Source: a virus (Duplodnaviria > Caudoviricetes). Taken from it: a stretch of 64,000 bases of DNA. The notes under the pieces are model-generated. The model saw nothing but the letters and a program-made list of their open reading frames with translations. It searched no databases and had not been told where the DNA came from. The stretch is from the IMG/VR virus record IMGVR_UViG_2775506876_000001, positions 12,549 to 76,548 of that record; one strand, given 5' to 3'. This document shows positions 18,123 through 51,849 of the stretch, in pieces. The position numbers were made by a program, and so were the translations under genes. Each line of letters starts with the position of its first letter. The stretch's first letter is position 1.

Positions 18123-19236
18123 CTAGGGCATTCTAGACCAGGGTAAAAGCATGTATGAATCTAGGGTACTTAGATAATCTAGAACCTTTTAACTATCTAT
18201 TGTCATTAAAACATCTTATTGCAAATAACTGTACTAGAGTATTTATGCTTATTAAGTACTACTGTAATAGTACAGATATTCTCAATAAGCTCAATATTCT
18301 CAATAAGACCACAAAATTTTTTGTAGTTTTTTGTAATGGTTTTTGTAGAAATTACAAACTACAAAAACCTTATGTAGCAAGGATTTTGTAATAGTTTTTG
18401 TAGATTTTGTAGTTTTGAGCCGGATATAAATCTCTACAGGTGTACTAGTACAGGTGTACTATCAAAGTGTACTAGTAAAATTTATACAAACTAGTACTAT
18501 CAAAGGCTTATAGAAATCTATGATTTAATCTGGCTAGAGAAAAATAATCATAAATTTTTGTAGTCCAGGGTAGTTGTACTAACAAAAACCTGAGTAAATC
18601 ATAAAAAATCTAAATAAGTATTTTTACTTATAAATTTGTACTAGTTATATAAAGGATAAATTAATATAAGTTTTTCTTATACTTCTTTATGTTTTATATA
18701 TGTAATACAAATTAAATAGATTATTTGTACTAGTTTAAGTATTTATAACTATTTAGGTTTTTGTTAGTACAACTACCCTGGGCTACATAATTTTTTGATT
18801 ATTTTTCTCTGACCATAGAAAACTAGATATTCATATAAGTCTTGATATATAAGATTTTCTTGTACTACAAAACTACCTGTTTTTATATTACAGACATACT
18901 ACAAAGCTCTAGAGATTTATATCCGGCTCAAAACTACAAAATCTACAAAAACTATTACAAAATCCTTGCTACATAAGGTTTTTGTAGTTTGTAATTTCTA
19001 CAAAAACTATTACAAAAAACTACAAAATTTTTTGTAGTCTTATTGAGAATATTGAGCTTATTGAGAATATCTGTACTATTACAGTAGTACAAGTAAGTAT
19101 AAATGCTTAAAATAGTATATGTATAAGCTAAACTTATCAATGAAAACTACAAAAAGTCTGAAAGCCTTGTAACAACTAGAATCTTTATTCAGCTTGATAA
19201 ACTAATCGTGCTGCCACCCTGGTCTAGAATGCCCTA
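18123..19236. repeat. Nested palindromic element A (about 1.1 kb); inverted copy of element B
   Basis: Arms 18124-18144/19216-19236 (21 bp), 18256-18436/18910-19090 (181 bp), 18536-18591/18755-18810 (56 bp); dense ACTACAAAA and GTACTA iterations. Confidence 0.93.
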
Positions 19237-19384
19237 TAACTTACCCGATCATCGAACAAACCCTTTTGTACTTCCAATGAATCAAGGCTTTTTGTAATCG
19301 ATTCTGGAAACTACAAAAATTTTTGTAGTCCATTTTGCAACTCTGCGATAAACTACAAAATTCAAAAATTGTTTTAAAATACCC

Positions 19385-19454
19385 TTGACAAATTTAAACT
19401 TTTGTGCTATAGAGAATAATTTATAAAATATTCAAAATTAAAAAGTCACTTTTT
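19385..19454 (+). promoter_or_regulatory. Repeated promoter cassette, copy 3, upstream of nucleotide-metabolism genes
   Basis: TTGACA-17bp-TATAGA plus AAAAAGTCACTTTTT. Confidence 0.75.
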
Positions 19455-19522
19455 AAAATAGTTTTATAATATAAGTGTTGAATTTTGGAATTGTCTGCCA
19501 TCTTTTACAGATGGCTTTACTT

Positions 19523-19804
19523 ATGGATAATCAAGAAAAACCAGATATTCTTTTGATACTTTCACAAGAACATCCAGAATTAAAAGAATATTTTTTACAG
19601 CGTAGAAATATAGGGCTACAAACATACGGTAAACGTTTAAACCCTTTTAATGGTAGAGATGCTTACAAAGATTTGTTTGAAGAATTACTAGATGCCTGTG
19701 CTTATGCATATCAGCTTTATTTAGAAAATCCTAATGATACTAAATATCATGTGATTTATGAAGCTGTTACTGAATTAACAAAATTAGTTTTAGAGAAAAA
19801 GTAA
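19523..19804 (+). CDS. Phage protein, possibly all-alpha nucleotide pyrophosphatase-like
   Basis: 'GLQTYG..L...NGRD..DLFEELLDACAY'; next to dcd; ATG at 19523 preferred. Confidence 0.5.
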   Translation: MDNQEKPDILLILSQEHPELKEYFLQRRNIGLQTYGKRLNPFNGRDAYKDLFEELLDACAYAYQLYLENPNDTKYHVIYEAVTELTKLVLEKK

Positions 19805-19805
19805 T

Positions 19806-20393
19806 ATGACAATTAAAAGTGATCGATGGATCTCTGAGCAAGGCTCTAATCTAATTAATCCGTTCTGTAACAGTTTGATTAGAAAACAGGATGATCTAAA
19901 AGTTATTAGTTATGGATTATCTAGTTATGGTTATGACATCAGATTGTCGGGCAAAGATTTTAGGATTTTTAAACACATCCCTGGTCAAGTAGTCGATCCT
20001 AAAAATTTCGATCCAAAATTTCTTGAAAAAGCCGATTTGTATTTTAACGATGATGGTTCAAAATATTTTATAATTCCGGGGAATAGTTACGCTTTAGGTG
20101 TTGCCAAAGAATTTTTAGATATTCCTGATGATGTAACTGTTATCTGTATTGGTAAATCAACTTATGCAAGAGTAGGTTTGATAGCCAATTTAACACCTGG
20201 TGAGGCAGGATGGAAAGGTCATTTAACTCTTGAAATCAGTAACAGTTCTAATAGTGATTGTATTGTTTATGCTGATGAAGGAATCGTACAATTATTATTT
20301 TTCCAAAGTGATGAAAAATGTCTAACAACTTATGAAGCCAGAAATGGTAAATACCAAAATCAATCTGAACAGATAACAATAGCCAAAGTATAA
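19806..20393 (+). CDS. dcd: dCTP deaminase
   Basis: 'ISYGLSSYGYDIRL', 'GKSTYARVG', 'EAGWKGHLTLEI', 'GKYQNQ'. Confidence 0.95.
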   Translation: MTIKSDRWISEQGSNLINPFCNSLIRKQDDLKVISYGLSSYGYDIRLSGKDFRIFKHIPGQVVDPKNFDPKFLEKADLYFNDDGSKYFIIPGNSYALGVAKEFLDIPDDVTVICIGKSTYARVGLIANLTPGEAGWKGHLTLEISNSSNSDCIVYADEGIVQLLFFQSDEKCLTTYEARNGKYQNQSEQITIAKV

Positions 20394-21378
20394 TAACTTT
20401 GGTATAGGTTTTTTTAATCCTAGAATGATAAAAAGTTCTAGGATTTTTTATATAATAGATATGTTCTTAGCTACTTGATTTTATGAATAACATTGTTGAA
20501 TTATTAGGCTTTTATGGTGGTGATAAAAGAGTTTGTTTATCAGCTTGGCAAAGTACTACAGAAGAATTAGGAATTGATTTACCCGATGATATTTCTGATA
20601 GGGTTGATGTGATTTTTGAATATCTATGTACCCAGAAAAAGAAAACACCTTTTGAATTATTAAATTTTTTAGCTGAAAATCATCACGAAACACCTTTTGA
20701 AAAAGCTATTTTAGATTTTCAATTAACAGGTGATATTGCATCACACATACATGTAATCAAACATAGAATAAGTAGTGTAAATGCAGAAAGTCAAAGATAT
20801 AAAGAGTTTATTTATGATCGTTTTTATATTCCTGATGATTGGCAAGGAATTCAAGCTACTGGTGATGTAACTTGGTTTACTAATTTTGAAGAAGAATGTG
20901 TTTTTAGCAATAAAAACGAATATTGGCAAGACATTTTAGAAAATTATAGTCAATTAGGGTTTAATTTATATCATCAAGCTATTGAAGATTTAACACCAGT
21001 TTTAGGTAAAAAAACGTGCTAAAGAATCAGCTAGATATTTTCTCGGTTATAATACTCAAATAAACTTTGACTGGCAGATGAATTTTAGAAGCTTTGTAAA
21101 TATTCAACAATTAAGAAATAGTGATCATTCTCAAAAAGAAATTCATTACATTGCCAACACCATGCTTTATTTAGTTGAGAATATCCCTGGACAACCGTTT
21201 AAATATTGTTTAAAAGCTTTTGGATTAAAGTCTGATCCTAATTGGTTGTTAAATCATCAAAAATTACTTGAAGATTTAAAATTGCTAAATAATCTATAAC
21301 TTTGGTATAGGTTTTTTAATCCTAGAATTATAAAAAGTTCTAGGATTTTTTATATAATAGATATGTTCTTAGTTACTT
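20393..21378 (+). repeat. ~84-bp direct repeat preceding each thyX gene (20393-20476 and 21296-21378)
   Basis: ATAACTTTGGTATAGGTTTTTTAATCCTAGAA...TTCTAGGATTTTTTATATAATAGATATGTTCTTAG; contains a hairpin and TATAAT. Confidence 0.9.
20483..21299 (+). pseudogene. thyX: FAD-dependent thymidylate synthase ThyX, frameshifted at an A7 run (21008-21014)
   Basis: 'HETPFE' and 'KHRISSVNAESQRY'; removing one A gives GKKRAKESARYFLGYNTQ...MNFRSF, joining ORFs 20483 and 21078. Confidence 0.85.
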
Positions 21379-21387
21379 AATGGTTTT

Positions 21388-22197
21388 ATGTTTCAACCTA
21401 AAGTCAAAATTATTAAAGATTCGGTTAACGCTGCAACTGGTTCTAGAATTACAACTTTTGTTTTAACTTATCATCGTTTTATACATTCTGAGTTCATGAC
21501 TTATAGAATGTTTTCTAGAAATGCTTCAAGTTCTAGAGCAATTCCTGTAGAGAAAATGATTCAAAAAGTTATTGATCAACAGGTTGAGCCACTTTATTGG
21601 GGTAAGAATCAACCAGGGATGCAAGCGAGTCAAGAATTATCATCAGAAGAAATAGAGCAAGCCAGATTACAATGGAATGCCGCAAAAGCAACAGTAATTT
21701 CTTATGCTCGACAAATGATTGAAAAAGGTGTACATAAACAAATAGTCAATAGAATTTTAGAACCTTTTTCAACCATTACAGTAATTTGCACATCCACAGA
21801 TTATCAAAACTTTTTTAATCAACGTTGTCATCCAGATGCACAACCAGAAATACAAGCTTTAGCATATTTAATGAAAGCTGAGTATGATAAATCAAAACCT
21901 GATATCTTATACCCTGGTGAATGGCATTTACCATTTTATGATTTAGAGAATGATAAAGGTATTTTTGGTGATGATATTTTAAAAGTGTGTGTTGGTAGAT
22001 GTGCAAGAGTTAGTTATTTAAATCATGATGGTAAGCGTAATTTAAGCAAAGATATTGAATTACATGATAAATTACTTGTTGCTAACCCAAAACATCTTAG
22101 TCCTTTTGAACATGTAGCGATCGCTCAAACTGGTAATAATGCTAATTTTTTGGATTTTAAAAGTTATAGATATATTTTAGAAAATTCTGGTTTATAA
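21388..22197 (+). CDS. thyX: Second ThyX-like thymidylate synthase (different subfamily)
   Basis: 'TYRMFSRNASSSRAIP', 'HKQIVNRILEPF', 'AQPEIQ', 'RCARVSY', 'HLSPFEH'. Confidence 0.88.
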   Translation: MFQPKVKIIKDSVNAATGSRITTFVLTYHRFIHSEFMTYRMFSRNASSSRAIPVEKMIQKVIDQQVEPLYWGKNQPGMQASQELSSEEIEQARLQWNAAKATVISYARQMIEKGVHKQIVNRILEPFSTITVICTSTDYQNFFNQRCHPDAQPEIQALAYLMKAEYDKSKPDILYPGEWHLPFYDLENDKGIFGDDILKVCVGRCARVSYLNHDGKRNLSKDIELHDKLLVANPKHLSPFEHVAIAQTGNNANFLDFKSYRYILENSGL

Positions 22198-22243
22198 ATA
22201 ATCTATAATATTAGTGGCTCATACTAAACAGCAATGGACTATC

Positions 22244-22282
22244 AAAAATCCCTAAAAGAATTTTAAACTTTTAGGGATTTTT
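22244..22282. terminator. Bidirectional terminator between convergent genes
   Basis: AAAAATCCCTAAAAG...CTTTTAGGGATTTTT. Confidence 0.75.
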
Positions 22283-22304
22283 CTTTTTATATAACTTTGT
22301 AACT

Positions 22305-22934
22305 TTAGGAATCTTCAAACAATTCTAAAATTATTTCCCAATCAGGCTTACATTTTTGAGTAATTTCAGATCTGTTTTCAACTATAAATTTTTTAAAATT
22401 ATTTCTATGAATTATAATTCTATTACCATTTTCTACAGGATTTAAAATATTCTTCCATCGTTTAATTTTTAACCAAGATTGAACTTTATCGTACGAAACA
22501 TTTAGAATTTTCTCTATTTGCCTGACACTTACATATTGATCTGCAACATCCCTAGACAAACCTAATTTAACTATTTGTGCGTGAATAGCGTTTACAGTTC
22601 TAAAGCTTAAATTTTTTTCCAGACAATAACCATTTAATTTTTTAACAATTTCTGGAAATGGAAGTAAACCACAATATCTTTCTAGTATTTCTATTTCTCT
22701 GGGATGCCAATCTCTAACCATCAAAGAATTTTTACCACCTCTTACCATCAATCCTTTCTGTTTAACATATTTACTTATCAAATATTGAGATACTTCATGA
22801 CCATTGGTTTTTAATAATAATTGTAATTTTTTTACGATGCCCCAAACATCCTGATAATTTTCATCAATAATTTTAGTTATTTCACTAGATTTTACATATT
22901 TTAAATCTAGTTTTGATTTGGGATTCCTTGCCAT
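22305..22934 (-). CDS. Putative DNA-binding (HTH) protein
   Basis: 'WHPREIEIL', 'SVRQIEKILNVSYDKVQSWL'. Confidence 0.6.
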   Translation of the reverse strand: MARNPKSKLDLKYVKSSEITKIIDENYQDVWGIVKKLQLLLKTNGHEVSQYLISKYVKQKGLMVRGGKNSLMVRDWHPREIEILERYCGLLPFPEIVKKLNGYCLEKNLSFRTVNAIHAQIVKLGLSRDVADQYVSVRQIEKILNVSYDKVQSWLKIKRWKNILNPVENGNRIIIHRNNFKKFIVENRSEITQKCKPDWEIILELFEDS

Positions 22935-23067
22935 ATTTTAAAAAGTCACTTTTTGAATTGTCCTACAAATCTATTATATAACTTGATTTTATAAGATGTC
23001 TGAAATAATACATAATAAAAAGTTATGTTATAATATTATAAATATCAGTTTTATTCATATTTATATA

Positions 23068-23787
23068 ATGCTTACGACCAGGTTAGTAGTAGGCAAAATT
23101 TACCGAACTAATGGTGATGTTCTGACATCATCCAAAATTTTATTCAAACTTTTAAATAGTTCTTACATAGCTGATGGTCAAATAGTCAAATCAGAGATTA
23201 TTGCAGACATAGATAATCAGGGTAATCTATACACCACAACAGATTTAGGAAGCATCATTAATGGTGTGAGACTTTGGTGTAATGAGCAAGGTGATATAGC
23301 ATCTGAATACGCTTGTTTTTTACCAGGGAATGAGGTATTCAAATTTACTTTACCATCAGGTAATTCTGACATTCAGCTATCGGTTTTAAGACAAGCGGGA
23401 ATAACCCAGAATGATCCTCAGTACAATACCCTGGCCACTTACGTTGATAACTTAGTAAATTCTAAAGGTACTGGGAAAATCTCGATACCTTTTAGTTATG
23501 GTGATGCTTCACCAAAGATTTTGATTAATAGTTTTCAAGGTTTAGTCGACACTGTAACTATTCAAATCAATCAAGTTTTTAATGAAATTTCTTTATTATC
23601 AATAACAGATTCATCAAATCAAACTTTATTGTCTAGTGATTATTGTGATGTGACAACTGTTGCAAGTTATGAATCTTACCCGTTTTTCAAATATGAAAAC
23701 TCGGTTGATATTTTCTTGAATATTCAACTTGGAAATGGTGTAAACCAAGGAAATGGTTTTGTAGTTTTAGGAATCAAGGAGTTATAA
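23068..23787 (+). CDS. Virion structural protein
   Basis: First of four tightly coupled ORFs; ATG at 23068 preferred. Confidence 0.5.
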   Translation: MLTTRLVVGKIYRTNGDVLTSSKILFKLLNSSYIADGQIVKSEIIADIDNQGNLYTTTDLGSIINGVRLWCNEQGDIASEYACFLPGNEVFKFTLPSGNSDIQLSVLRQAGITQNDPQYNTLATYVDNLVNSKGTGKISIPFSYGDASPKILINSFQGLVDTVTIQINQVFNEISLLSITDSSNQTLLSSDYCDVTTVASYESYPFFKYENSVDIFLNIQLGNGVNQGNGFVVLGIKEL

Positions 23788-23790
23788 AAA

Positions 23791-34765: not shown

Positions 34766-35446
34766 TCAAGAGTATTTAAGCTTATATTTTTTAAAATTAT
34801 CAGATTGACAAAACAAACAGTTACGATTTTTAATCAATCTGATAGAATAACCAGAATCTTGGAATTCATGTCCATTGCTACAAATAGAACCAAAAGCGTA
34901 TAATTCCGGTTTTCTACGAAGTTCAATTAAAAAATCTGTAGCCTCTTGACTTAATTCAGCATTTTTGTATTCTCGCTGAATTCCTAGTTTTTCCCTGGTC
35001 ACTTGTTGGTATATTATTTTTTGTTGCTTTTTGATTTTTTCTTCATTTTCTAAACGGTAATTTATTGCGCAAAAAATACATCTTTTTGATATTTTATATC
35101 TGATAGAATAACCAGAATTTTCAAATTCATGATTATTCGGACAGATAGTACCAAATCTAAAATCATCGGAATTTTTACCACTAGCTTTTAAAAAGTTGAT
35201 AGCCGATTTAGTCAAAGGTGTAAATTTACCAAAAACCGATTCTTTTTTCTGTTTCACATGATCTTTACATTTTCTAGTTTTATTACATTCATAACAATTA
35301 TTACCGTTTTTATATCTGATGGAGTAACCAGAATCTCGGAATTCATGATTGTTCTTACAAATTTCACCAAATCTGTATAATTCTGGATTGCAGCCAGCAA
35401 ATATTAAATGATCTATAGCTTCTTGGCTTAATTCTGGGTAATTCAT
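34766..35446 (-). CDS. Protein with three Cys/His repeats
   Basis: 3x 'FGxICxNxHEFxxSGYSIR..CxxC'; ATG at 35446 preferred. Confidence 0.7.
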   Translation of the reverse strand: MNYPELSQEAIDHLIFAGCNPELYRFGEICKNNHEFRDSGYSIRYKNGNNCYECNKTRKCKDHVKQKKESVFGKFTPLTKSAINFLKASGKNSDDFRFGTICPNNHEFENSGYSIRYKISKRCIFCAINYRLENEEKIKKQQKIIYQQVTREKLGIQREYKNAELSQEATDFLIELRRKPELYAFGSICSNGHEFQDSGYSIRLIKNRNCLFCQSDNFKKYKLKYS

Positions 35447-35622
35447 ATCGATTAAATAAAAGTGACTTTTCAAGTATACAAACAATTCATAGAATTGTCT
35501 ACCTTTGAAAAGTCACTTTCTAGCTATGGGTATTATAAAAAGTTTGTCAAGTACTTGTAACAATCTGTAATGTCTCGGATAACTTTAATGGTTCAGTCCA
35601 GGTACAGCGTTTTTCTGTTTGC

Positions 35623-37236
35623 TTAAAATTTCGGAACAATACCAAGATAGTAATGACCAAGATAAGCAAACACAACGGGCTGTTTCAATCTTTGTGAAAC
35701 AACTTTGTAATTTTTATACTGTTCGCGTAAATTATCCCGGTCTTTCTTATCAGGTACTGCTTGAGGAAGATTTAAAGCGGTCTCGATAACTTTATAGCTT
35801 TCCATTTCTCGGTTATCTTTAATATATTTGTTGCCAAGTAACACAAGATTTAAACATGACCTAGTGCTTTGATCTAACTCTTTAATGCCTATGGCTTTCA
35901 GGTTTAAACTGTGTAATATTGCGACAAATTTGACGTTGTACTCCCGCCCAATAATTAAAATGTCTAATAACAATTGTGAATATTGAACATCAGCTTCATC
36001 GAGAGCGATCGCAGAACTGATCCAATCATCGAGTAACACGATAAAAGGTTTAAGATTATTGCGTCGATCTTCATCCAGGGACAATCTACGCTCATATTCA
36101 GTTTTGATATCGTTAAAAAATTCTTGTGCTTCTTGGATTTTGTCATCACCTATAAATCTATAGCAACAATCTTGTTCTCTTAAACCTTCGTAGCTGTCAT
36201 TTTTTACGCTGAATACTCTGGCATCAAACTCTGTGTAAGTGTCCTTTAATTGCCTCAAATACTCTTTAACGAATGAACTTTTACCACTACCTTGTTGTCC
36301 AATAATCACTGTTGAACCATCAGACTTTACAAGACTCTTAATCATGTCTCTAGTGTCTTGCTCAGATTTAGCAACATCAAAGTTACTACCCTGGACAGAA
36401 TCGTTTTGATTATCAAAATTATCCGAACTGTTGCTAGAACCATCTGAACCGTTGCCAGACTTTTCTAAATTCGGTTCATAACCACGTTGATCCAAACGTT
36501 CCATTTTCTTTTCACTAGTTTTTGACTCTAAATCATGCTTAAATTTTTCAGCTTTTAACCGTGCTAAATCTAAATCAAAACTAGAATTCTCGATAAGTTT
36601 TTGCTTTCTAGATTGTTCCTGTAAATATTCCTGATAAGCTAGTTTTTGCTCATCGGACATGTCCATCATTCTCAAACTTTGAAATTCACTTTCAATATTT
36701 TCTTGGATGTACTGAGTTTCTAGAACGGTTCTATACTTGGTTGTTTCGCGAGACTGCAAACCGATTAACTGAGCTTCAAGAGTTTCAGTTTTGTATTGTT
36801 CAAATAGTTCAGGGAATTCTCGCTTGTATCTGGTTGATGTCAGGCTGTAAAGTCCGTAAGAAACTGTTGAAAGTCCTACAGCCGCTATAGCATAAAAAAG
36901 GTAATTTGGGTTAGTTGCTTTATTAAAATTTACAATGTGTCTACCAGTTGCCGGAATCAAAAATTTATCATTCCCTGTAACAAATTCTGGGTTAGGTTTC
37001 AACTCATCCTTTTTCAACAAAAACTTAGGGCTAGTCCTAAATATGTCCTGACCATTTTTACAGAATTCAGATCTTGGTGTACTGTGTAAAACTTCTGGGA
37101 TAAAGCAAAAATCTACAGTATCATATTTAACATCTGACATACTAGTATACATCGATACAATACTGATGCCAGCAAAACAGAATGCTAATTTTGCTGTGTT
37201 ATCTCTTTGTTTCTTGATCTGTTTAAGCGGGTTCAT
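35623..37236 (-). CDS. Membrane-anchored P-loop ATPase (FtsK/HerA/coupling-protein-like)
   Basis: Two N-terminal TM segments, coiled coil, 'GQQGSGKS', 'IVLLDDW', 'IGREYNV..V..LHS'. Confidence 0.75.
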   Translation of the reverse strand: MNPLKQIKKQRDNTAKLAFCFAGISIVSMYTSMSDVKYDTVDFCFIPEVLHSTPRSEFCKNGQDIFRTSPKFLLKKDELKPNPEFVTGNDKFLIPATGRHIVNFNKATNPNYLFYAIAAVGLSTVSYGLYSLTSTRYKREFPELFEQYKTETLEAQLIGLQSRETTKYRTVLETQYIQENIESEFQSLRMMDMSDEQKLAYQEYLQEQSRKQKLIENSSFDLDLARLKAEKFKHDLESKTSEKKMERLDQRGYEPNLEKSGNGSDGSSNSSDNFDNQNDSVQGSNFDVAKSEQDTRDMIKSLVKSDGSTVIIGQQGSGKSSFVKEYLRQLKDTYTEFDARVFSVKNDSYEGLREQDCCYRFIGDDKIQEAQEFFNDIKTEYERRLSLDEDRRNNLKPFIVLLDDWISSAIALDEADVQYSQLLLDILIIGREYNVKFVAILHSLNLKAIGIKELDQSTRSCLNLVLLGNKYIKDNREMESYKVIETALNLPQAVPDKKDRDNLREQYKNYKVVSQRLKQPVVFAYLGHYYLGIVPKF

Positions 37237-40878: not shown

Positions 40879-41033
40879 GATTGTTTTTTAGGTTGTCTTA
40901 CATCACAAGGTTCAAAATCGGATTGTGTGTCTCGTAAGACTGCACATTTAGCATAATCTCTGGGGTTGTCATAGTGATAATCACATGTTTGGCATTGTTT
41001 AGGGATGTTGTCTTTTTCTGATTGTTTCGACAT
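40875..41033 (-). CDS. Small Cys-rich protein (52 aa, not in ORF track)
   Basis: MSKQ...CQTCDYHY...CAVL...EPC; AAGGA RBS; TGA overlaps next ATG. Confidence 0.6.
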   Translation of the reverse strand: MSKQSEKDNIPKQCQTCDYHYDNPRDYAKCAVLRDTQSDFEPCDVRQPKKQS

Positions 41034-41035
41034 TG

Positions 41036-41323
41036 TTTTGAATCCTTTAGAGTTAGTGGTTGTCTAGATAGAAATTGATTGACCAAGGAACTGATTATGA
41101 TTCCCACCATTGCCCATTATCTTCTTCATTTGATTCTTCAGCCATTACTTCAAGAATTTGTTCGTTTTCCCAAGCTTTATAAACAGCTTGGCTAATATTT
41201 TCAGAAAGTTCTACTTCAATAGAACCTTCAACTTTTTCAAATGAAACGATGCCATTAAATAGATAAGCCTTGTAAATCTTCATGATTTTGAATCCTTTAG
41301 AGTTAGTGGTTGTCTAGATAGAA
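41036..41323. repeat. 38-bp direct repeat (41036-41073, 41286-41323) flanking ORF 41095..41283
   Basis: TTTTGAATCCTTTAGAGTTAGTGGTTGTCTAGATAGAA. Confidence 0.9.
41095..41283 (-). CDS. Small hypothetical protein
   Basis: AAGGA RBS within the repeat. Confidence 0.55.
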   Translation of the reverse strand: MKIYKAYLFNGIVSFEKVEGSIEVELSENISQAVYKAWENEQILEVMAEESNEEDNGQWWES

Positions 41324-41446
41324 CCGGATTGCGTCAAGAATGACCTGAGTTAAGGTTTTTTCTTTGTTTTTACAGAATTCCTCAAGCTCTTGTCTGAGTT
41401 TTGGTGGAATTCGTAAACCAAACTGGGGTATTAAGTTCTTAGCCAT
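41303..41446 (-). CDS. Ribbon-helix-helix (Arc-like) regulator (47 aa, not in ORF track)
   Basis: MAKNLIPQFGLRIPPKLRQELEEFCKNKEKTLTQVILDAIRFYLDNH. Confidence 0.75.
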   Translation of the reverse strand: MAKNLIPQFGLRIPPKLRQELEEFCKNKEKTLTQVILDAIRFYLDNH

Positions 41447-43133: not shown

Positions 43134-43386
43134 CGAAGAGATCTAACTCTCGCTTTGCTAAATCCCGATCTCGGAAAGTCTTGCTATTACTTCCTGATCC
43201 AATAGTAGTTAGTGCAGCCATAAATTTTTTGCCATGTGGGAAAGTTAATACATGATGTATATAGGCTTTTGGTTTAAGGTGATGGTATCTTTGCATCTGT
43301 TCATATTCGATTTCCTCAGAATGGCGAATATCAACAGTACCAACGGTTGAGGTATCAGGTCTTTTTGGTGTGTCGTCTATCCACAT
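43093..43386 (-). CDS. Hypothetical protein
   Basis: ATG at 43386 follows AAGGA RBS in the repeated leader. Confidence 0.5.
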   Translation of the reverse strand: MWIDDTPKRPDTSTVGTVDIRHSEEIEYEQMQRYHHLKPKAYIHHVLTFPHGKKFMAALTTIGSGSNSKTFRDRDLAKRELDLFVDEFINKMQNYGN

Positions 43387-43387
43387 A

Positions 43388-43781
43388 ATTTTAAATCCTT
43401 TCAATTTTCTAAGTTGATTGTGTTACTTGACTAACACCCTGGATTATCTAAATTATTTTGATAAAATTTTCAATTAATTTAGATAATCCAAAATGTTGTC
43501 CAAATACTACTAATCAACTAATCGACACATTCTTCAACTTCAATTTTATTTAAAACACCATAAAAAACATTACCTTTAACAATTTGTCCATGATATTGAA
43601 TTTTATCAGCATCATTAACATCTATATCACTTTCAAGAGCATTTCTAATAGCATCTTGTTCATTGTCAGCTTCGATTTTTACAGAAACATAACCAGTAAA
43701 AGGAACTCTAACAATATATGTAGCCATGATTTTAAATCCTCTAAATTTTCTAAGTTAATTGTGTTACTTGACTAACACCCT
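43388..43781. repeat. ~53-bp direct repeat leader (43388-43440, 43729-43781)
   Basis: ATTTTAAATCCT..AATTTTCTAAGTT.ATTGTGTTACTTGACTAACACCCT upstream of two consecutive minus-strand genes. Confidence 0.85.
43518..43727 (-). CDS. Small phage protein
   Basis: 'VKIEADNEQDAI' motif common in small phage proteins. Confidence 0.6.
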   Translation of the reverse strand: MATYIVRVPFTGYVSVKIEADNEQDAIRNALESDIDVNDADKIQYHGQIVKGNVFYGVLNKIEVEECVD

Positions 43782-43825
43782 AGAACATCTAAATAATTTA
43801 GATGTTCTAAAGTAATATTCAAATT

Positions 43826-45520: not shown

Positions 45521-46822
45521 TTAAGCAGCTTCTTGTTGTTCAGACAATTCAGAGGGTTTTTGTTTGCTTTGAATTTTTAAAACCTGTTCCTGAATTTTCT
45601 TAACTTTGTCAGCAATTTTAACAATTTGTTCAGGCATCAAATCAGGGTATTCTTGTACAGCCAGATTACTTAAGAACAAAGCAAAATCAGCTAAGTTATC
45701 TTTGGCTTGTCCTAACGCTTCAAAGGTAATAGCTTGTCTTTGAATGGTTTCAGAATCTTGTTCAGAATCTTGTTCAGAATCTTGTTCAGAATCTTGTTCA
45801 GAATCATCATCGTTATCATTAATCAAATTCTCAACACTAGCGGTTAAGAATTCTTTGGCATGTTCTAACGCTTCAACAGTTAAAGCATTATTAGAACCAT
45901 CTTGTAAACCAACAAAATCTAAAGCTTCATTAATGACTTTTTCAAAATCAGCTTCAGTTTCTTTGGTAATTTTTTCAACTTCATCGACTAAAGCGAAAGG
46001 TAGAACACCAGATTCAACAAGTTCTAGGACTTGTTCACCTTTTTCTAAAATTTCCTCAACACGATCAACGTCTTTAATTGTGACTTTGTTTTTACCCCTT
46101 TCATTAGCTGATTTAACAGCCAAGTCTAAATAGTTTTTGGATTCAATACCAGCTTTGCTAGATTTAGCTAACACTGTATCAGCTATTGCTAAATCTATGG
46201 TTCCATCATTTAAAGCGGACTTTATAAATTCATCCTCTGTTGTGGATACTCTTAAAATCTGCTGTATCCAAGTTTCTGATTTACCCTGAATTGCTGCTAT
46301 AAAAGTTGTAACCTTTTTACGTAATTTTTTAACAGCTTTTTCATCCGGTTCCGTACCATTTTCTTTGATATATTCATCTAAAACTTGTTGATATTTAATA
46401 TCAAAGATTTCCTGAATGCCTTTAGAATATTCAAACGGTTTTAGTTGATTATTGGTTGTTCCTAAAGAAAGCATCCAACTTTTGCGCTTGATAGGATCTT
46501 CAGCATCCTCAACGGGCATGATAATATACGGAAAATCTAAAGATCCTTTGTATTCGGGATCTGTTGCAAGATTTTGTAGAGCTGCTAATCTGGAATTACC
46601 ATCCCAGACAACCCTTTTACCATCAACATTATATACAGATGGTAAAACAACACCAGGAATTTTAACACCACCATCAGCCTTGATAGCGGCTGTTAACTCT
46701 GGTCTATCGATTATTTCACGATAATTTTCGTCAGTTACAACAAATTCGGAATAATTTGCAGTATAATAGGTCTTTTTAGTTGCTGCCATATCAGTTACGT
46801 TATCCTCTAAAATGTCCGACAT
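45521..46822 (-). CDS. ParB/Srx-like N-terminal domain protein with HTH and acidic C-terminus
   Basis: 'GVKIP....VVWDGNSRLAAL' (GxxRxxA box); 'IAAIQGKSETWIQQIL' HTH. Confidence 0.72.
   Translation of the reverse strand: MSDILEDNVTDMAATKKTYYTANYSEFVVTDENYREIIDRPELTAAIKADGGVKIPGVVLPSVYNVDGKRVVWDGNSRLAALQNLATDPEYKGSLDFPYIIMPVEDAEDPIKRKSWMLSLGTTNNQLKPFEYSKGIQEIFDIKYQQVLDEYIKENGTEPDEKAVKKLRKKVTTFIAAIQGKSETWIQQILRVSTTEDEFIKSALNDGTIDLAIADTVLAKSSKAGIESKNYLDLAVKSANERGKNKVTIKDVDRVEEILEKGEQVLELVESGVLPFALVDEVEKITKETEADFEKVINEALDFVGLQDGSNNALTVEALEHAKEFLTASVENLINDNDDDSEQDSEQDSEQDSEQDSETIQRQAITFEALGQAKDNLADFALFLSNLAVQEYPDLMPEQIVKIADKVKKIQEQVLKIQSKQKPSELSEQQEAA
45749..45805. repeat. 12-bp tandem repeat encoding (DSEQ)4
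   Basis: TTCAGAATCTTG x4 plus a partial unit. Confidence 0.9.
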
Positions 46823-47085
46823 ATTTTTTATAGCACCTATCGGCTTAAACTGTCTAGTGTTTACTAAATAATTTTACCACGATTCAAAAAGTCACTTTTT
46901 AAACTTTTATCTATAATAATAAGTCAAAAAGCATAAAAAATCTAGTTTATATAAGTAATTTTTATATAATCTGTAAAATAAATATTATAAAAAGAAAAAT
47001 AATTAAGTAATTTTAGCAATTGAAATTGCTTGTTTAAACTGTAATCATTTAAATAGTGTTGATACTTCGCTTGAACTCTAGGATT

Positions 47086-47265
47086 ATGTTAAAGAAACCA
47101 AAGAAAATTTCCGACAAATTAATGGGGTTTTTTGTTACTCCAGAGGAAAAAATATTAATCATCCAAGCTAAACCTGATGATGTAAGTATGTCAGAATTTT
47201 TAAAATCAATAGTGATGCCAATTGTTACGAAAATGGTGATTTTAAAAAGAGCAAAATCACCTTAA
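47086..47265 (+). CDS. Putative RHH-like regulator
   Basis: 'LMGFFVTPEEK.......SMSEFLKSIV'. Confidence 0.55.
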   Translation: MLKKPKKISDKLMGFFVTPEEKILIIQAKPDDVSMSEFLKSIVMPIVTKMVILKRAKSP

Positions 47266-47313
47266 AGTTTTACAAAAGGTTTAAAGCCTTTTGTAAAACG
47301 CTTTAACAATTTG

Positions 47314-50004
47314 TCAAAGTTTTAACAATCCATTAACCTGATCAAACTCTGCTAAACCATGTTTAGCAACGTCTAGAAAAAGCTCAAGTATTTCTGGTTT
47401 TCTCAAATATTTCTTGTCTTTATTCCCATATTCTCTCAATACCTGAGCTTTTCTACAAAATGCATCTTTATAAAAATCTGATGCTTCGATAAATTGTTTT
47501 TGTTTATTTTCAAGAATTTTTTTACATTTTTTGATAAATTCTTGAAAAAGAAAGAGTTTTGATTGATCTATGTTTTCTAACTTATCCGTTAGGCTATGTT
47601 TGTAAACTAAACTAGCTTTTTCAATCAACCACATCCCAATTGCACAAGCTCTTAACATTGTTTCGTCACTCATGTGTTGTAAATCTTTATCAACACCTTC
47701 AGCAATTCTTAAGCAATGTAATGTTAATGCAATTCTGGCAACTTGTTCTGGTATACGGTTAAGCCATTGCCCAAAAGCTTCATTAGTGTCAATGACATTT
47801 CTAGATTTCTCTAAAGTCTGATTTCTGAATGCTGCCCAGATAGCGTGGCTTGTCTTGGTGTTTTTGACCAGGGTATTAACTGGTTCACCCTTAACAGGAT
47901 CTACAACGTGTGAAGCGTTTTGTATCTTTTTGTAAAGATTCAGACAGATTTCAGGAAAATCGAAATTAGTCTGAATATCTTCTAGAAACTTGTTGGGAAC
48001 CACAATCGGTTCGGCAATCGGGACATAAAGGAATCTTCCACAGATACCTGACCCAACATTATTATCGATATCAAAAGTATTATAGAAGCGTTTGGTTTGA
48101 ATCGTACTGAGCATTGAGCATCTAAAAAAGTCGGCTTCTTCTTCAGATGTGCTGACACGATTTCTTAAGGTTGTGTCACCATTCCAAATACGGATGAACT
48201 GATCTAGCGCATTCCCTTTCTTGTTGTTGTTAATGGTATCAATGCCACTTAAAAAGTCTGTTACTTCATCAGGACTAATTAGCAAGCCATAATTTTTATG
48301 TTCCCCAGACATTGTGCTAATAGCTTGTAAGCTCGAATCAGTCACGATGTATGGGTGGGCTTTTGTAGGTGTTGGACACATAACTTCCCGAATCTTTACC
48401 ATATCCATATCATCGGGAATGCTAGATTGATATGTTTGTTGTAAGTACTGGGCTTCTTTTTCATCTTTCTTTAAGGTTTTCCAATACTCTGAAAAAGCGT
48501 TATAAGCTTTGTTATCTTGAATATATGTGTTATTGGCTTCGACAGCCAAACGCTTAAAAGACTTTTTGAAAGGATCAACGGCTAAAGATTTACCATCCGT
48601 AGAACCACCTAGAAAAATAGTAAATATATTACTCGAACAAATACCAGTACTATTAAAATTAAAATTTGTGAACTTGCTTATTACACTACTAGAACAAGTC
48701 AGTAGTGACATAATTAAGTATTCTTCAGGTATATTATTTTCTACACCATATCTTTTTAAATCTTTTAAAATTGATGTACCGGATAATACATAGTCAGCAC
48801 TTAATTTAGATGTCTGTGCTTTCTGTATATCAGACAATCCAGATTGGAAAGTGACTTTTTGATCCTCTGAATAATCTACCTCAGACAACATATTTTCAAT
48901 TGTCTGGATCATTTCCTGATCTCTATACCCTGGTTCACGATCAAAAGTCTGTCTAAAAGCTAAACCAGCGATTATAGGTAGTTCGGCTGAAGTGAAATTT
49001 TTGACTTTTAAGCGGTTAACGTTTTCCTGTAACTCTTGGAATTTATCTAGATTTTTCCTTTCTTGGTGTTTTTGTAAATTCTGATCAAGATTAAAAGCTG
49101 AATTCCATTCTTGAGCTAGTTCTTTAAGTTCTTGATCATCCAGGGTAGGCTCAGGCTTACTGTTAAAAGCACTATTCCATATTGTTTCTGATTCGCTTCT
49201 ATCTATAGAAGGATTACAAGCTTGGCAATACTGCTCAAAAAGTTCATCAGCAGCACCCTGGTATTTAATACCTAGCTGATTTAATCTGTTTTCAGTACCA
49301 ACTAAATTCACAGCTAATTTGTAGCCTGAGTTGTTTCTAGAACCTTGTTCAGCACCATTAATAATCAATTGTCTATCGGAACCAGTCAGAAAAAATTCGA
49401 GTATTGGAATATCTTGTCTAAAATCTGGTAAAGCTGATGATACTTGCTTTTCCGGTTTAGCTTCAGATTTACCGTTAGATTCTAGATAACTATATATAGG
49501 GTGATTTTTAGATATCGTTGCCACTGGTAAATGATTTGAATAATAAGGTTGATTAGTTTTCGGATGGATGCCAGCAATAACTTGATAATGTTTACCCGTT
49601 CTAAATTCCAGTTGTTCTTGATCACCTGTAGCGATCGTGAAATGTTCAAAAGGTTTTTCGATTTTGTAAATTAAAGCTTCTCTTTGTCCAGGGTTAGAAC
49701 TAATCGTTAGTGTCTCTGGTAGTTCAAAACCTAGCAAATCAAAGAATTCTATAGCTGTAATACCATCCTTATCGATCGCTATGTATTCATTACCCAGAAC
49801 TATAGAAAGCATAGTCATATCAGGGTAATCCGAAAGCTTATCTAGAGTTATAGTTCCGTTTTGCCAACCTTTAGCACCTTTACAAGGAATTTTCTTATCG
49901 TTTAAACCTTTCTTGCAAGGCACAAAAGCTGTAAAAACTAAGCTGGCTATTTGATTTAGGTCAATTACTGTAGCAGTAAACTTTGTAGCGGTTGTTGTTT
50001 TCAT
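47314..50004 (-). CDS. Primase-polymerase (Prim-Pol) + PriCT + DUF3987-like ATPase replication protein
   Basis: 'IAIDKD', 'AGIHPKTNQPY', 'GSRNNS', 'GGSTDGKS', 'PDEV'. Confidence 0.8.
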   Translation of the reverse strand: MKTTTATKFTATVIDLNQIASLVFTAFVPCKKGLNDKKIPCKGAKGWQNGTITLDKLSDYPDMTMLSIVLGNEYIAIDKDGITAIEFFDLLGFELPETLTISSNPGQREALIYKIEKPFEHFTIATGDQEQLEFRTGKHYQVIAGIHPKTNQPYYSNHLPVATISKNHPIYSYLESNGKSEAKPEKQVSSALPDFRQDIPILEFFLTGSDRQLIINGAEQGSRNNSGYKLAVNLVGTENRLNQLGIKYQGAADELFEQYCQACNPSIDRSESETIWNSAFNSKPEPTLDDQELKELAQEWNSAFNLDQNLQKHQERKNLDKFQELQENVNRLKVKNFTSAELPIIAGLAFRQTFDREPGYRDQEMIQTIENMLSEVDYSEDQKVTFQSGLSDIQKAQTSKLSADYVLSGTSILKDLKRYGVENNIPEEYLIMSLLTCSSSVISKFTNFNFNSTGICSSNIFTIFLGGSTDGKSLAVDPFKKSFKRLAVEANNTYIQDNKAYNAFSEYWKTLKKDEKEAQYLQQTYQSSIPDDMDMVKIREVMCPTPTKAHPYIVTDSSLQAISTMSGEHKNYGLLISPDEVTDFLSGIDTINNNKKGNALDQFIRIWNGDTTLRNRVSTSEEEADFFRCSMLSTIQTKRFYNTFDIDNNVGSGICGRFLYVPIAEPIVVPNKFLEDIQTNFDFPEICLNLYKKIQNASHVVDPVKGEPVNTLVKNTKTSHAIWAAFRNQTLEKSRNVIDTNEAFGQWLNRIPEQVARIALTLHCLRIAEGVDKDLQHMSDETMLRACAIGMWLIEKASLVYKHSLTDKLENIDQSKLFLFQEFIKKCKKILENKQKQFIEASDFYKDAFCRKAQVLREYGNKDKKYLRKPEILELFLDVAKHGLAEFDQVNGLLKL

Positions 50005-50368
50005 ATATTTATTACTTCAGACCTGAATCTATTATACTATGTTTGTAAAAATCATATAATACTGATGTAAAAGCTTTACTTATACCACAATCTCTATAAT
50101 ATCATTAAAATTTATAATGCTTCTGAACAGTATTATCTGTGTTATAGTTAAATCAACATAAAATATTACTTCAAACCTAATTTTCAGCCAGCCCTAAAAG
50201 TTGGCTGATTTTTTTATCTAAAATTTGTCGGACAAATCAAAAAGTGACTTTTTGATTTTTAAATTTAAAGTTTGTAAATACCTATATGAAAATTGTGTAA
50301 ATACCTATAGACGTTAGTAACAGCACTAAGTATTATATATAGTTACACAAATCTCACAGGTTAGATAT

Positions 50369-50602
50369 ATGGCTGTCAAGTCTTTAGTCAGACCAACCAA
50401 TCACCAGCTATCACAATCACAAATAGAGTTTTACCAAAATCTGAGACTCCAGAAAGCTTACAAAGAAGCCGAAATGTATAAGAGAAACTGCTTGAGAATA
50501 AAATCAGAACATTGTATATTTTGCAACTCTCAGAAGTTAGTTTTAACACCTCTATCAAAGGAAAGGACTTTTAAATGTTCAAGTTGCAACAGAAGTTTCT
50601 AG
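50369..50602 (+). CDS. Small zinc-ribbon protein
   Basis: 'CIFCNS...FKCSSCNRSF'. Confidence 0.65.
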   Translation: MAVKSLVRPTNHQLSQSQIEFYQNLRLQKAYKEAEMYKRNCLRIKSEHCIFCNSQKLVLTPLSKERTFKCSSCNRSF

Positions 50603-50805
50603 TATATTTTGTATATTTTGAATAAAATCAGATATATTACATCATTAATCATCAGCTTGGGCATCTATAAGTATCAACACTAATAACCCTGTCAGAATTC
50701 TGGCAGGTTTTTTAGTAAATTTTGTTCTATAACACATTCTTGTAAAATTGTCAATTAAATATTGAATAACAGTGTGTTTGACCAGGGTAAACGCTGATTA
50801 TAGTA

Positions 50806-51849
50806 TTTTTGTAGTTTTCATTGATTTTCATTGATAAGTTTAGCTTATACACATGTTATTTTAAGCATTTATACTTACTTGTACTACTGTAATAGTACAG
50901 ATATTCTCAATAAGCTCAATATTCTCAATAAGACTACAAAAAATTTTGTAGTTTTTTGTAATAGTTTTTGTAGAAATTACAAACTACAAAAACCTTATGT
51001 AGCAAGGATTTTGTAATAGTTTTTGTAGATTTTGTAGTTTTGAGCCGGATATAAATCTCTAGAGCTTTGTAGTATGTCTGTAATATAAAAACAGGTAGTT
51101 TTGTAGTACAAGAAAATCTTATATATCAAGGCTTATATGAATATCTAGTTTTCTATGGTCAGAGAAAAATAATCAAAAAATTATGTAGCCCAGGGTAGTT
51201 GTACTAACAAAAACCTAAATAGTTATAAATACTTAAACTAGTACAAATAATCTATTTAATTTGTATTACATATATAAAACATAAAGAAGTATAAGAAAAA
51301 CTTATATTAATTTATCCTTTATATAACTAGTACAAATTTATAAGTAAAAATACTTATTTAGATTTTTTATGATTTACTCAGGTTTTTGTTAGTACAACTA
51401 CCCTGGACTACAAAAATTTATGATTATTTTTCTCTAGCCAGATTAAATCATAGATTTCTATAAGCCTTTGATAGTACTAGTTTGTATAAATTTTACTAGT
51501 ACACTTTGATAGTACACCTGTACTAGTACACCTGTAGAGATTTATATCCGGCTCAAAACTACAAAATCTACAAAAACTATTACAAAATCCTTGCTGTGTA
51601 AGGTTTTTGTAGTTTGTAATTTCTACAAAAACCATTACAAAAAACTACAAAATTTTTTGTAGTCTTATTGAGAATATCGAGCTTATTGAGAATATCTGTA
51701 CTATTACAGTAGTACTTAATAAGTAAAAATACTCTAGTACAGTTATTGTCATTAACATGTTTTATTGACAATAGATAGTTAAAAGGTTTTAGATTATCTA
51801 AGTACCCTAGAATCCATATATGCTTTTACCCTGGTCTAGAATGCCCTAG
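50806..51849. repeat. Nested palindromic element B; inverted copy of 18123-19155
   Basis: Reverse complement aligns with element A with only scattered substitutions; 181-bp arms at 50881-51061/51535-51715. Confidence 0.93.

Follow-up and report, generated by a model that had tools for sequence, protein, structure and literature searches.

The locus lies in a window of 64,000 nucleotides, and in its host it belongs to an integrated cyanobacterial prophage of 77.8 kb with an integrase and 28-bp att repeats. The original prediction had spoken of a phage with twin elements. The locus proves to be a prophage integrated in a 9.96 Mb chromosome and not a free phage genome, and there are three copies of the element (A, B and C), the third to the left of the window, which makes at least two segments flippable. 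The copies and the main genes are as follows, with coordinates counted from the first letter of the window.

18124..19236, no strand: copy A, the full element from one terminal inverted repeat to the other (~1.11 kb); the tract kept alike between A and B is 18123-19155
18126-18144 and 19216-19234: terminal inverted repeats of copy A, GGGCATTCTAGACCAGGGT and its exact reverse complement
50780..51848, no strand: copy B, inverted relative to A
51828-51846 and 50780-50788: ends of copy B, a full terminal repeat and a 9-nt remnant, GACCAGGGT
-1815..-784, outside the window (G000:C1:690971-692002; L008:785-1816): copy C, in the orientation of B
47314..50004, minus strand: DUF3987 protein of 896 aa (putative primase-helicase), reading away from copy B
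52051..53070, plus strand: DHH phosphoesterase (RecJ-like fold family), the first gene right of B
59696..60076, plus strand: RusA-like Holliday junction resolvase
62807..64000, minus strand: tyrosine integrase at the right prophage end
64140, outside the window: attR (28-bp repeat)

A tail-fibre J-like gene lies inside the segment between A and B, and the PolB and helicase genes lie outside it. The large gene beside copy B had been labelled a Prim-Pol gene, a name that the searches do not bear out: Pfam assigns its 896-aa product only DUF3987 (residues 426-802), and NCBIfam and PDB sequence searches gave no matches. In Pfam, PHROGs or NCBIfam scans of 49 ORFs, a set that leaves out about 15 ORFs of at least 90 aa (mostly structural genes at 1429-9383), no member of the ParB, invertase or Erf/RecT-type recombinase families appeared. 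Hints of DNA binding in the same set come only from one KilA-N domain protein and from weak HTH signals in 22305-22934.

The inverted match between copies A and B is far above chance. Gapped blastn aligns 18123-19146 with 51849-50825 at 97.9% identity over 1,025 nt (E = 0), and a repeat search of the window returns arms at 18157-19146 and 50825-51814 that are 98% complementary over 990 nt, with a spacing of 31,678 nt. The similarity extends to 19155/50806 once a 10-bp tandem duplication, TTTCATTGAT (50816-50835), is allowed for. These alignments confirm the claim that 18123-19155 is the reverse complement of 50806-51849, and the scattered substitutions and the 10-bp duplication described with it are both seen. 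Copy C contributes a 97% identical stretch (G000:C1:690971-691918, window -1731..-784) that ends ~0.8 kb left of the window. In the three-copy alignment, 906 of 948 shared core columns are invariant and 42 are variable, and the stretch 18559-18762, which includes an AT-rich centre, is identical in all three. Similarity drops sharply at the edges of the tract: the 70-90 nt that lead from the core to the terminal repeat are wholly unlike among the copies, whereas the core is 97-98% alike, and the flanks of every copy are unique.

Repeats of 1 kb are difficult for short reads, and contigs end there, which is the ground for suspecting that one or more copies were misassembled. We give this suspicion next to no weight, in agreement with the earlier remark that the repeat is not a perfect assembly echo. 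Specifically, the copies differ at the 42 variable columns, each has its own flanks, and the 9.96 Mb genome was assembled in just two contigs. Furthermore, the coverage analysis that the original prediction had proposed was run on Logan contigs, which break at repeats, from two runs of one sample. The contig of the collapsed central 533 nt (18407-18939) has a depth of 95.7 against ~36.5 in its neighbours in run X1 and of 143.8 against ~60 in run X2, and this 2.4-2.6-fold depth is as expected for three copies. The contigs of both runs yielded no joints, though linkage across a 1 kb repeat is beyond what contigs can show.

Every copy taken alone forms a quasi-palindrome: its self-complementarity reaches 80% over 870-890 nt, and two arms of 184 nt, 97% complementary, enclose an AT-rich centre.

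18256..18439, no strand: left palindrome arm of A, rich in CTACAAAA/TTTTGTAG motifs; pairs with 18907-19090 (97%)
18597..18750, no strand: AT-rich centre of A, with two flanking ATTTGTACTAGTT motifs
18907..19090, no strand: right palindrome arm of A
50881-51064 and 51532-51715: palindrome arms of B
about 51221-51374: AT-rich centre of B

The centre of A (18600-18750) contains 84-86% AT against a prophage mean of 68%, and the element folded as single-stranded DNA reaches -287.6 kcal/mol, compared with -76.5 +/- 6.0 for 20 shuffles (z = -35). The motif CTACAAAA occurs at 47 sites in the window where 7.0 are expected, and 42 of its 61 sites in 96 kb fall within the elements, whose share of those 96 kb is 3.5%. 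Copy A holds 14 of these sites within its bounds and 19 when the flanks are included (17600-19480), arranged mirror-symmetrically about 18673, together with six TGTACTAST and four ATTCTCAATAAG sites; symmetric arrays of CTACAAAA and TTGTACTAGT are present in each copy. The element contains no long ORF, and an Rfam scan of 17300-19600 returned CRISPR repeats only. Small ORFs in the arms were considered as genes and rejected: their 13 variable sites fall at codon positions 1, 2 and 3 in the numbers 6, 3 and 4, and the amino acid is unchanged in the codons of only 2 of the 13. The description of the element as non-coding is thus borne out by arm ORFs that carry no coding signature. The words "homogenised" and "origin-like" have likewise held up, given copies that are 97-98% alike and an anatomy of motif arrays round an AT-rich centre.

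Origin function fits this anatomy. Short motif arrays next to an AT-rich region are features of iteron origins, and the candidate layout would consist of symmetric binding-site arrays round an easily melted centre, set between outward-pointing promoter-like blocks. The element's role would then most likely be that of a protein-loading site for replication, i.e., a candidate origin. No DnaA box was found in copy A. The cumulative GC skew has its minimum at copy B, where it coincides with a switch in gene orientation, and it shows no turn at copy A; since the skew follows gene orientation, it is uninformative on an origin. That a replication gene adjoins only copy B counts against an origin role. 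Satellite phage P4 requires two iteron clusters in cis, ori and crr, both bound by its primase-helicase, the alpha protein. Like the prophage, P4 has a small genome in which a short repeat forms more than one cluster and a large primase-helicase gene lies alongside. By analogy, the DUF3987 protein could use the CTACAAAA arrays in the way that the alpha protein uses these clusters. The clusters of P4 are, however, short and a few kb apart, whereas the prophage has 1 kb palindromes separated by 20-33 kb.

Herpes simplex virus provides a parallel for the whole arrangement. Its genome has one oriL and two oriS, which are AT-centred palindromes between divergent genes, and its inverted repeats give rise to four isomers. 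The prophage resembles it in having three palindromic, AT-centred elements with outward promoter-like blocks and inverted copies, and in the four isomers that would be expected from general recombination linked to replication. The sequences and proteins are unrelated, the viral origins measure 45-144 bp against 1 kb here, and they are proven origins where the prophage has candidates. A stronger claim built on this parallel is that a temperate tailed phage carries three functional palindromic origins, and that recombination between firing origins yields the four isomers and aids the switch from theta replication to concatemers. We consider this claim tentative, possible rather than probable. 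If it is true, the N-1/A-1(L) cyanophages would have a reduced form of the same device in their inverted repeats, which would explain the isomerism reported for these phages.

The surroundings of the copies carry their own signals.

17488..17601, minus strand: promoter-like block left of A, with TTGACA, 17 nt, TGCTATAG and then the AAAAGTSACTTTT palindrome; points left
17651..17970, minus strand: CRISPR-DR5 mini-array of 5 repeats and 4 spacers; read on this strand, its leader (17993-18122) adjoins, and abuts, copy A
19311-19328: perfect 18-bp palindrome, CTACAAAAATTTTTGTAG, ~55 nt upstream of the right-hand A block
19353..19459, plus strand: promoter-like block right of A; points right
51981..52095, plus strand: promoter-like block right of B; points to the DHH, helicase and PolB genes
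1..501, plus strand: right surroundings of copy C, with a small ORF (23-313) and a promoter-like block (394-501)

Five promoter-like blocks are kept alike, with the invariant pattern TTGACAAAT.TAA..TT.T.TGCTATAG: two flank A, a third lies right of B and a fourth left of C, and the fifth stands to the right of C at a distance of ~1.2 kb, past three small ORFs. All five are directed away from the nearest copy. They speak for a reading in which the copies would be three early-control regions: a prophage repressor, or some other transcription factor, would bind the CTACAAAA palindromes and the other motifs as operators and control the blocks, and inversion would be incidental. The palindrome CTACAAAAATTTTTGTAG just upstream of A's right-hand block would suit such a regulatory role, as would the palindrome AAAAGTSACTTTT, which is scattered in intergenic DNA (26 sites against 0.02 expected) and shows that repeated DNA signals serve this phage as a means of control. 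However, some 14 half-sites over 1 kb, an AT-rich centre and near-perfect homogenisation exceed what promoter control usually needs. The promoter scan, furthermore, shows no excess of sigma-70-like sites (20 against 13.8 +/- 4.0, and 9 against 15.6 +/- 3.9), a count that omits the left-A block, whose -10-like hexamer ends in A or C. No repressor candidate emerged among the 49 scanned ORFs, in which the KilA-N protein and the weak HTH signals were the only hints of DNA binding. Regulation as the element's main role therefore seems unlikely to us, and it would be compatible with an origin role rather than exclusive of it.

The ends of the element raise a different possibility, namely a selfish, non-autonomous MITE-like transposon of ~1.1 kb that entered the phage at three intergenic positions. 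The terminal inverted repeats of 19 nt match at 19/19 positions at both ends of A, are full at one end of B and appear in a 16/19 version at one end of C; TA follows every complete end, and a long ORF is lacking. Dispersed host copies that are similar from end to end, which mark MITE families, are not seen. Specifically, all seven matches to the element in the 9.96 Mb genome lie at the three loci, and all four sites of the terminal repeat lie at the copies. Among 60 related genomes, none holds a full-length element and six hold fragments of only 30-75 nt (E 5e-6 to 4e-4). A blastn search of a phage collection with the element's DNA gave no match, an exact 26-mer of the element was not found in three public collections, and the terminal repeat was not found in IMG/VR, all of these being collections that may lack records of the window's own genome. 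The high identity is, moreover, confined to the inner ~950 nt, with outer 70-90 nt that are unlike, which points to gene conversion of old copies rather than to recent transposition. The promoter-like blocks in the flanks are paralogues of one another too, which makes the duplicated region larger than the element, and the TA may be part of the repeat itself. A mobile origin of the three copies is thus improbable. The prophage's own proteins likewise have only distant kin: the best matches of the DUF3987 protein in 389 family genomes are partial, at 24-50% identity over at most ~750 of 896 residues, and PolB is matched in 81 of 388 family genomes at only 37-47%. No close relatives were found in IMG/VR through the DUF3987 protein and PolB, or of the prophage in JGI metagenomes and GTDB genome contigs.

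The reading we prefer, with a confidence slightly better than even, is that the repeats are three copies of one cis-acting non-coding element of a 77.8 kb temperate cyanophage, a recombining element that most likely serves as an origin-like loading site. Recombination between the copies would keep them 97-98% alike. A runs opposite to B and C, so that homologous recombination is expected to flip the A-B segment (32.6 kb) and the C-A segment (19.9 kb), which could produce up to four genome isomers. The agents may be host RecA or phage functions, together with the phage's RusA resolvase. Because inversion leaves the linkage between promoters and genes unchanged, it would most probably be a by-product. 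A crossover between B and C, which lie in direct orientation, would delete or excise 52.5 kb; such a prospect counts against the preferred reading, in which such loss has to be explained away by selection. Both the origin function and the recombination in the prophage are what we infer, and the flip-flop idea for the prophage is supported by analogy with related phages.

Inversion can also be the work of a dedicated recombinase. The G segment of Mu with Gin, the C segment of P1 with Cin and the FRT sites of the 2-micron plasmid with Flp all depend on short crossover sites and on a recombinase encoded alongside, and the invertible segments of Mu and P1 span a few kb and switch tail-fibre genes. 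The prophage resembles these systems in having a segment between inverted repeats, for which two orientations exist in theirs. By this route, a recombinase would act at a short site in the repeats, as at gix or FRT, and the integrase might moonlight in that role. The prophage does encode one tyrosine recombinase. Furthermore, the 8-mer GCATTCTA occurs in its att core as well as in the terminal repeat, and in each of these TTCTA stands a few bases upstream of CATTCTA, a weak, post hoc resemblance. That recombinase is, however, the sole one of its kind and sits at the att end of the prophage, like an ordinary integrase. None of the six genome matches to the serine invertase domain PF00239 falls in the region, the repeats measure 1 kb and the segments 20-33 kb, none of which is typical of a Gin/Cin/Hin switch, and inversion rewires no promoter-gene pair. 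A kilobase at 98% identity would, moreover, be unneeded by such an enzyme, whereas general recombination uses and maintains it. Dedicated site-specific inversion is accordingly very improbable, and homologous recombination is the likelier mechanism because no invertase gene was found.

The architecture had not been recognised as one described for phages, but inversion of this kind is in print (PMC8297451; 10.64898/2026.02.14.705889): the layout is a variant of repeat-flanked inversion already described, and the flip-flop idea itself is not new. As far as the available parts of these two sources go, an invertible segment of ~30 kb flanked by inverted repeats is present in A-1(L), N-1, Elbi, YongM, A-Lf14 and others (PMC8297451; 10.64898/2026.02.14.705889). 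The Elbi announcement of 2021 noted inversion of the repeat-enclosed segment, with 29,932 bp enclosed (PMC8297451). In turn, a preprint of 2026 reports, by PCR, Sanger sequencing and read mapping, that isomers coexist in four phages of the A-1(L)/N-1 cluster; in its available part these are members other than N-1, YongM and Elbi, and its Supplementary Table 6 adds five more phages with such repeats (10.64898/2026.02.14.705889). The same part leaves the mechanism and purpose of the repeats open and raises a possible role of lysogeny (10.64898/2026.02.14.705889). Isomerisation of the prophage would be the same phenomenon that has been shown in N-1/A-1(L)-type cyanophages, which have a single pair of repeats.

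Paired copies were also looked for in related cyanophages, as had been suggested, and were found in all three examined: N-1 (724 nt, 98.3%, with ~28.9 kb between), YongM (517 nt, 100%) and Elbi (617 nt, 99.7%). In each of the three, the pair adjoins primase genes, and the annotated records name no integrase or invertase product, an observation on annotation names only that speaks against site-specific inversion there. The prophage shares with this type its pair of near-identical, long, non-coding inverted repeats (1,025 nt at 97.9%) some 30 kb apart (31,678 nt between the arms), in a PolB-encoding cyanophage of Nostocaceae without an apparent invertase gene. Its large primase-type gene abuts copy B and is directed away from it, as in N-1, and in both cases the copies are near-identical inside one genome and dissimilar from phage to phage. 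With N-1 it further shares a CRISPR-DR5 mini-array and the motif TTGTACTA[GC]T, which is confined to the repeats in both genomes (9/9 sites in the prophage, 6/6 in N-1) and is absent from YongM and Elbi; in a post hoc test, 500 resamples gave a shared repeated 10-mer only six times.

The differences are as clear. The prophage has three copies of ~1.0-1.1 kb instead of two of 0.4-0.7 kb; they are quasi-palindromes with an AT-rich centre, whereas N-1, YongM and Elbi have non-palindromic repeats; and it is integrated in a chromosome, with an integrase gene and att repeats of its own. Its primase-type protein belongs to DUF3987 instead of the DUF5906 of the N-1 cluster, with no BLASTP similarity between the two. 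Of the primase, helicase, PolB and baseplate/tail-fibre genes that characterise the segment of this type, N-1 carries PolB and helicase inside, while in the prophage these two lie outside the A-B segment. Isomers have been demonstrated in the cluster and are predicted in the prophage. By shared proteome it falls outside the N-1 cluster, and kinship is distant and thin: among the 147 ORFs of at least 60 aa in the 96 kb stretch, six match N-1 (tblastn, 1e-5) and seven match YongM at 1e-5, one of them outside the prophage, and PolB identity is 43-46%, with a value of 45% for the Nostoc phages N-1, A-1 and Elbi.

A further published parallel concerns the group II Campylobacter phages CP21, CP220 and CPt10, in which, according to the available part of the source, large modules are separated by long repeat regions (PMC4546147). 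There, too, several long non-coding repeat regions made of short units, some of them two-armed and inverted, lie at module borders, and their recombination with one another is given as the cause of module inversion; those regions vary in unit number instead of being near-identical, and the phages are virulent and T4-related (PMC4546147).

The prophage thereby offers the layout of the A-1(L)/N-1 type in a temperate, integrated and only distantly related phage, and its repeats are legible: predicted binding sites form symmetric arrays, the centre is AT-rich, and one motif recurs in N-1. These features, together with the lack of a detected invertase gene, point to general recombination between cis-acting, probably replication-related sites. 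Should the origin reading fail, the locus would remain a neat example of how three repeats within one prophage genome are kept alike. It also provides concrete sequences (CTACAAAA and TTGTACTAGT) and a lysogen for origin mapping, isomer counting and binding assays. Among the related phages, the annotations already place the enclosed segment of N-1, relative to the terminase gene, in the orientation opposite to that of YongM and Elbi.

The original prediction had described twin non-coding elements in inverted orientation at 18123-19155 (copy A) and 50806-51849 (copy B). The repeat search of the window bears out this pair, with inverted arms at 18157-19146 and 50825-51814 (990 nt, 98% complementary, spaced by 31,678 nt), as does gapped blastn, which aligns 18123-19146 with 51849-50825 (1,025 nt, 97.9%); allowing for a 10-bp tandem duplication in B at 50816-50835, the similarity extends to 19155/50806. 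The elements are not twins, however, as the whole-genome search revealed a third, 97% identical copy C at C1:690971-691918 (window -1731 to -784), in the same orientation as B. All seven matches to the element in the two-contig, 9.96 Mb host genome fall within these three loci; the window itself corresponds to C1:626187-690186 on the minus strand of that genome. The contigs of one sample break at the repeat, and the 2.4-2.6 fold depth of its collapsed central piece supports three copies. On the circular phage map, successive element centres are separated by 19.9, 32.65 and 25.25 kb. The non-coding nature of the repeats also held: neither A nor B contains an ORF longer than 78 aa, and the small ORFs of the palindrome arms (six occurrences in total) carry no coding signature, their 13 variable sites being distributed 6/3/4 over codon positions 1/2/3, with only 2 of the 13 in codons that keep their amino acid.

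The locus that hosts the repeats is a prophage. A 28-bp direct repeat at window positions -13699 and 64140 brackets 77,839 bp, its two copies being candidate attL and attR sites; the prophage interior has a GC content of 31.6%, versus 40.8% in the right host flank. Both 28-bp repeats lie within or at the end of ORFs, so the site of integration seems to have been a host gene encoding an AAA_23 domain rather than the tRNA-Thr gene located 4.8 kb further right. The prophage comprises the following features (L008 is a stretch flanking the window):

Features of the prophage
L008:12626-13228 (-), window -13227 to -12625 (+): GGDEF-domain ORF, 200 aa, just inside the left prophage end, a possible cargo gene
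L008:2934-12548 (+), window -12547 to -2933 (-), left of the window: tape-measure protein with VanY and M23 peptidase domains, 3,204 aa, unusually long for such a protein
2601-4028: large terminase subunit
47314-50004, minus strand: DUF3987 protein
55088-57052, plus strand: ResIII/Helicase_C helicase with an intein (Hint/intein domain at residues 146-270)
62807-64000: tyrosine integrase
elsewhere in the prophage: tail-fibre proteins, dCTP deaminase, ThyX-like genes, FtsK/A32-like ATPase, DHH phosphoesterase, PolB, RusA and a KilA-N protein

The two ThyX-like ORFs (20483-21022, 179 aa; 21388-22197, 269 aa) are each preceded by one unit of a 93-96 nt direct repeat (92.7%; 20393-20485 and 21296-21390), which suggests a partial gene duplication.

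Structurally, every copy of the element is a quasi-palindrome, 80% self-complementary across 870-890 nt, with arms of 184 nt at 97% and inner arms of 94 nt at 81-82%. The single-stranded DNA fold of A's core reaches -287.6 kcal/mol, compared with -76.5 +/- 6.0 in 20 shuffles (z = -35). The centre (18600-18750) has an AT content of 84-86%, where the prophage averages 68%, and the stretch containing it, 18559-18762, is identical in all three copies. In the three-copy alignment, homogenisation is confined to a core some 950 nt long, with 906 of 948 shared columns invariant; C has 24 private differences, B has 11 and A has 7. The 70-90 nt outside the core are dissimilar from copy to copy; beyond them lies a terminal inverted repeat, GGGCATTCTAGACCAGGGT. 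Copy A carries it intact at each end, B has one intact copy and a 9-nt remnant at the opposite end, and one end of C matches it at 16 of 19 positions. Allowing up to three mismatches, the host genome has no further occurrence. Recent transposition would predict uniform similarity from end to end, and the contrast between core and outer parts speaks against it. Instead, a sharp-edged core at 97-98% within diverged outer parts that retain the terminal motif points to gene conversion among old copies. As a side observation, GCATTCTA is common to the terminal repeat (18126-18144) and the att core (64140), both with TTCTA a few bases upstream of CATTCTA; this likeness is weak, was noted post hoc and could be due to chance.

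The elements are furthermore packed with short motifs. The window has 47 CTACAAAA sites where 7.0 +/- 2.6 would be expected, and across the 96 kb studied, the three elements, amounting to 3.5% of the sequence, hold 42 of its 61 sites. Within copy A their arrangement is mirror-symmetric around position 18673, and they are often paired as palindromes, such as CTACAAAA-NN-TTTTGTAG. Two further motifs, TGTACTA[GC]T (18/18 sites) and ATTCTCAATAAG (11/11), are confined to the elements, and copy A contains no DnaA box by the consensus applied. CTACAAAA-NN-TTTTGTAG and ATTTGTACTAGTT may represent protein-binding sequences, with the DUF3987 protein or small neighbouring proteins as candidate binders.

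The copies are accompanied by five paralogous blocks, each roughly 100 nt long. Two flank A, one lies right of B and one left of C; the fifth (394-501) is about 1.2 kb to the right of C, with three small ORFs in between. All five point away from the nearest copy and contain the invariant TTGACAAAT.TAA..TT.T.TGCTATAG, after which comes the palindrome AAAAGTSACTTTT. Judged by eye, they are promoter-like; a scan for sigma-70-like sites returned no overall excess and left these blocks uncounted because their second hexamer lacks the final T. The palindrome AAAAGTSACTTTT is also dispersed, with 26 sites in the window against 0.02 expected (e.g., 467, 4844, 13115, 22941, 45077, 53153 and 57123); it is intergenic in the roughly 20 copies for which context was listed, often adjoining TTGTCnGACAA and a TATAAT-like hexamer, and resembles a promoter or operator signal specific to this phage.

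Taken from the sequence, the symmetric binding-site arrays, the AT-rich centre, the outward promoter-like blocks and the position of B beside a primase-type gene are consistent with an origin of replication. At B, cumulative GC skew reaches its minimum, in agreement with an origin but confounded by gene orientation. Frequent recombination of inverted copies would necessarily also invert the enclosed DNA, 32.6 kb in the case of A with B and 19.9 kb in the case of C with A. Copies B and C are direct repeats, so that their recombination would delete or excise DNA. Since crossovers inside the core would leave every promoter-like block with its own genes, promoter-gene linkage would remain unchanged and inversion would thus have no obvious regulatory effect; it is taken to be a by-product. 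No resolvase or invertase domain is present in the region (none of six genome matches falls within it), it contains no tyrosine recombinase apart from the att-end integrase, and neither ParB nor an invertase was found among 49 ORFs scanned, with about 15 ORFs lying outside the scan.

Paired copies do recur in related cyanophages, as each of the three examined carries one near-identical inverted pair, one repeat of which adjoins the primase gene:

Inverted repeat pairs in related phages
N-1: 19656-20378 / 49999-49276, 724 nt, 98.3%
YongM: 35951-36467 / 65429-64913, 517 nt, 100%
Elbi: 21808-22424 / 52973-52357, 617 nt, 99.7%

According to the annotations, the enclosed primase-PolB-baseplate segment is oriented relative to the terminase gene in N-1 opposite to YongM and Elbi. 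The prophage PolB shares 43-46% identity with its counterparts in the Nostoc/Anabaena myophages N-1, A-1, A-1(L), YongM, YongM2, Elbi and Dfl-JY23. Kinship is thin all the same: only 6 of 147 ORFs of at least 60 aa match N-1 by tblastn at 1e-5, and the large primase-type proteins of prophage and relatives belong to different Pfam families with no BLASTP similarity. No close relative of the prophage was found in the collections searched (family genomes, IMG/VR, JGI metagenomes and GTDB contigs). In both prophage and N-1, TTGTACTA[GC]T is confined to the repeats (9/9 and 6/6 sites, respectively), whereas YongM and Elbi have no such site; a repeated 10-mer common to both repeat families was reached in 6 of 500 resamples in a post hoc test.

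The original prediction of a dual origin or flip-flop system is thereby supported in part: a repeat architecture with precedent for inversion in related phages stands, but its presentation as undescribed fails, as inverted repeats around an invertible segment of about 30 kb are in print for N-1-type phages. Specifically, the Elbi announcement reports a 29,932-bp inversion between 504-bp inverted repeats and same-place repeats in A-1 and N-1 (PMC8297451). A 2026 preprint describes nine related phages with a conserved region of about 30 kb between 400-700 nt repeats, with both isomers together in four of the nine by PCR, Sanger sequencing and read mapping; it leaves the inversion mechanism open and raises the question of lysogeny (10.64898/2026.02.14.705889). 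Chenard et al. 2016 contains no mention of an 'inverted repeat', and its 'ori' label is confined to a figure legend. In Campylobacter group II phages, long repeat regions believed to recombine separate the modules (PMC4546147). New relative to this known layout are the three copies, their palindromic structure and their occurrence in a temperate and distantly related phage.

Left of A, inside the prophage, Rfam places a CRISPR-DR5 mini-array (17651-17970, minus strand; five repeats, four spacers), and its strand implies that the array leader abuts copy A. The repeat is absent elsewhere in the host genome at up to three mismatches and matches the N-1 array at 89% as well as a vestige in YongM; its spacers match no phage record. 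Further short repeat families occupy window positions 34816-35389, 41031-41331 and 43384-43803, including three 97-nt units inside ORF 34766-35485 and paired repeats of 51-79 nt, 89-90% identical, that start with CAT.ATTTT.AATCCT.
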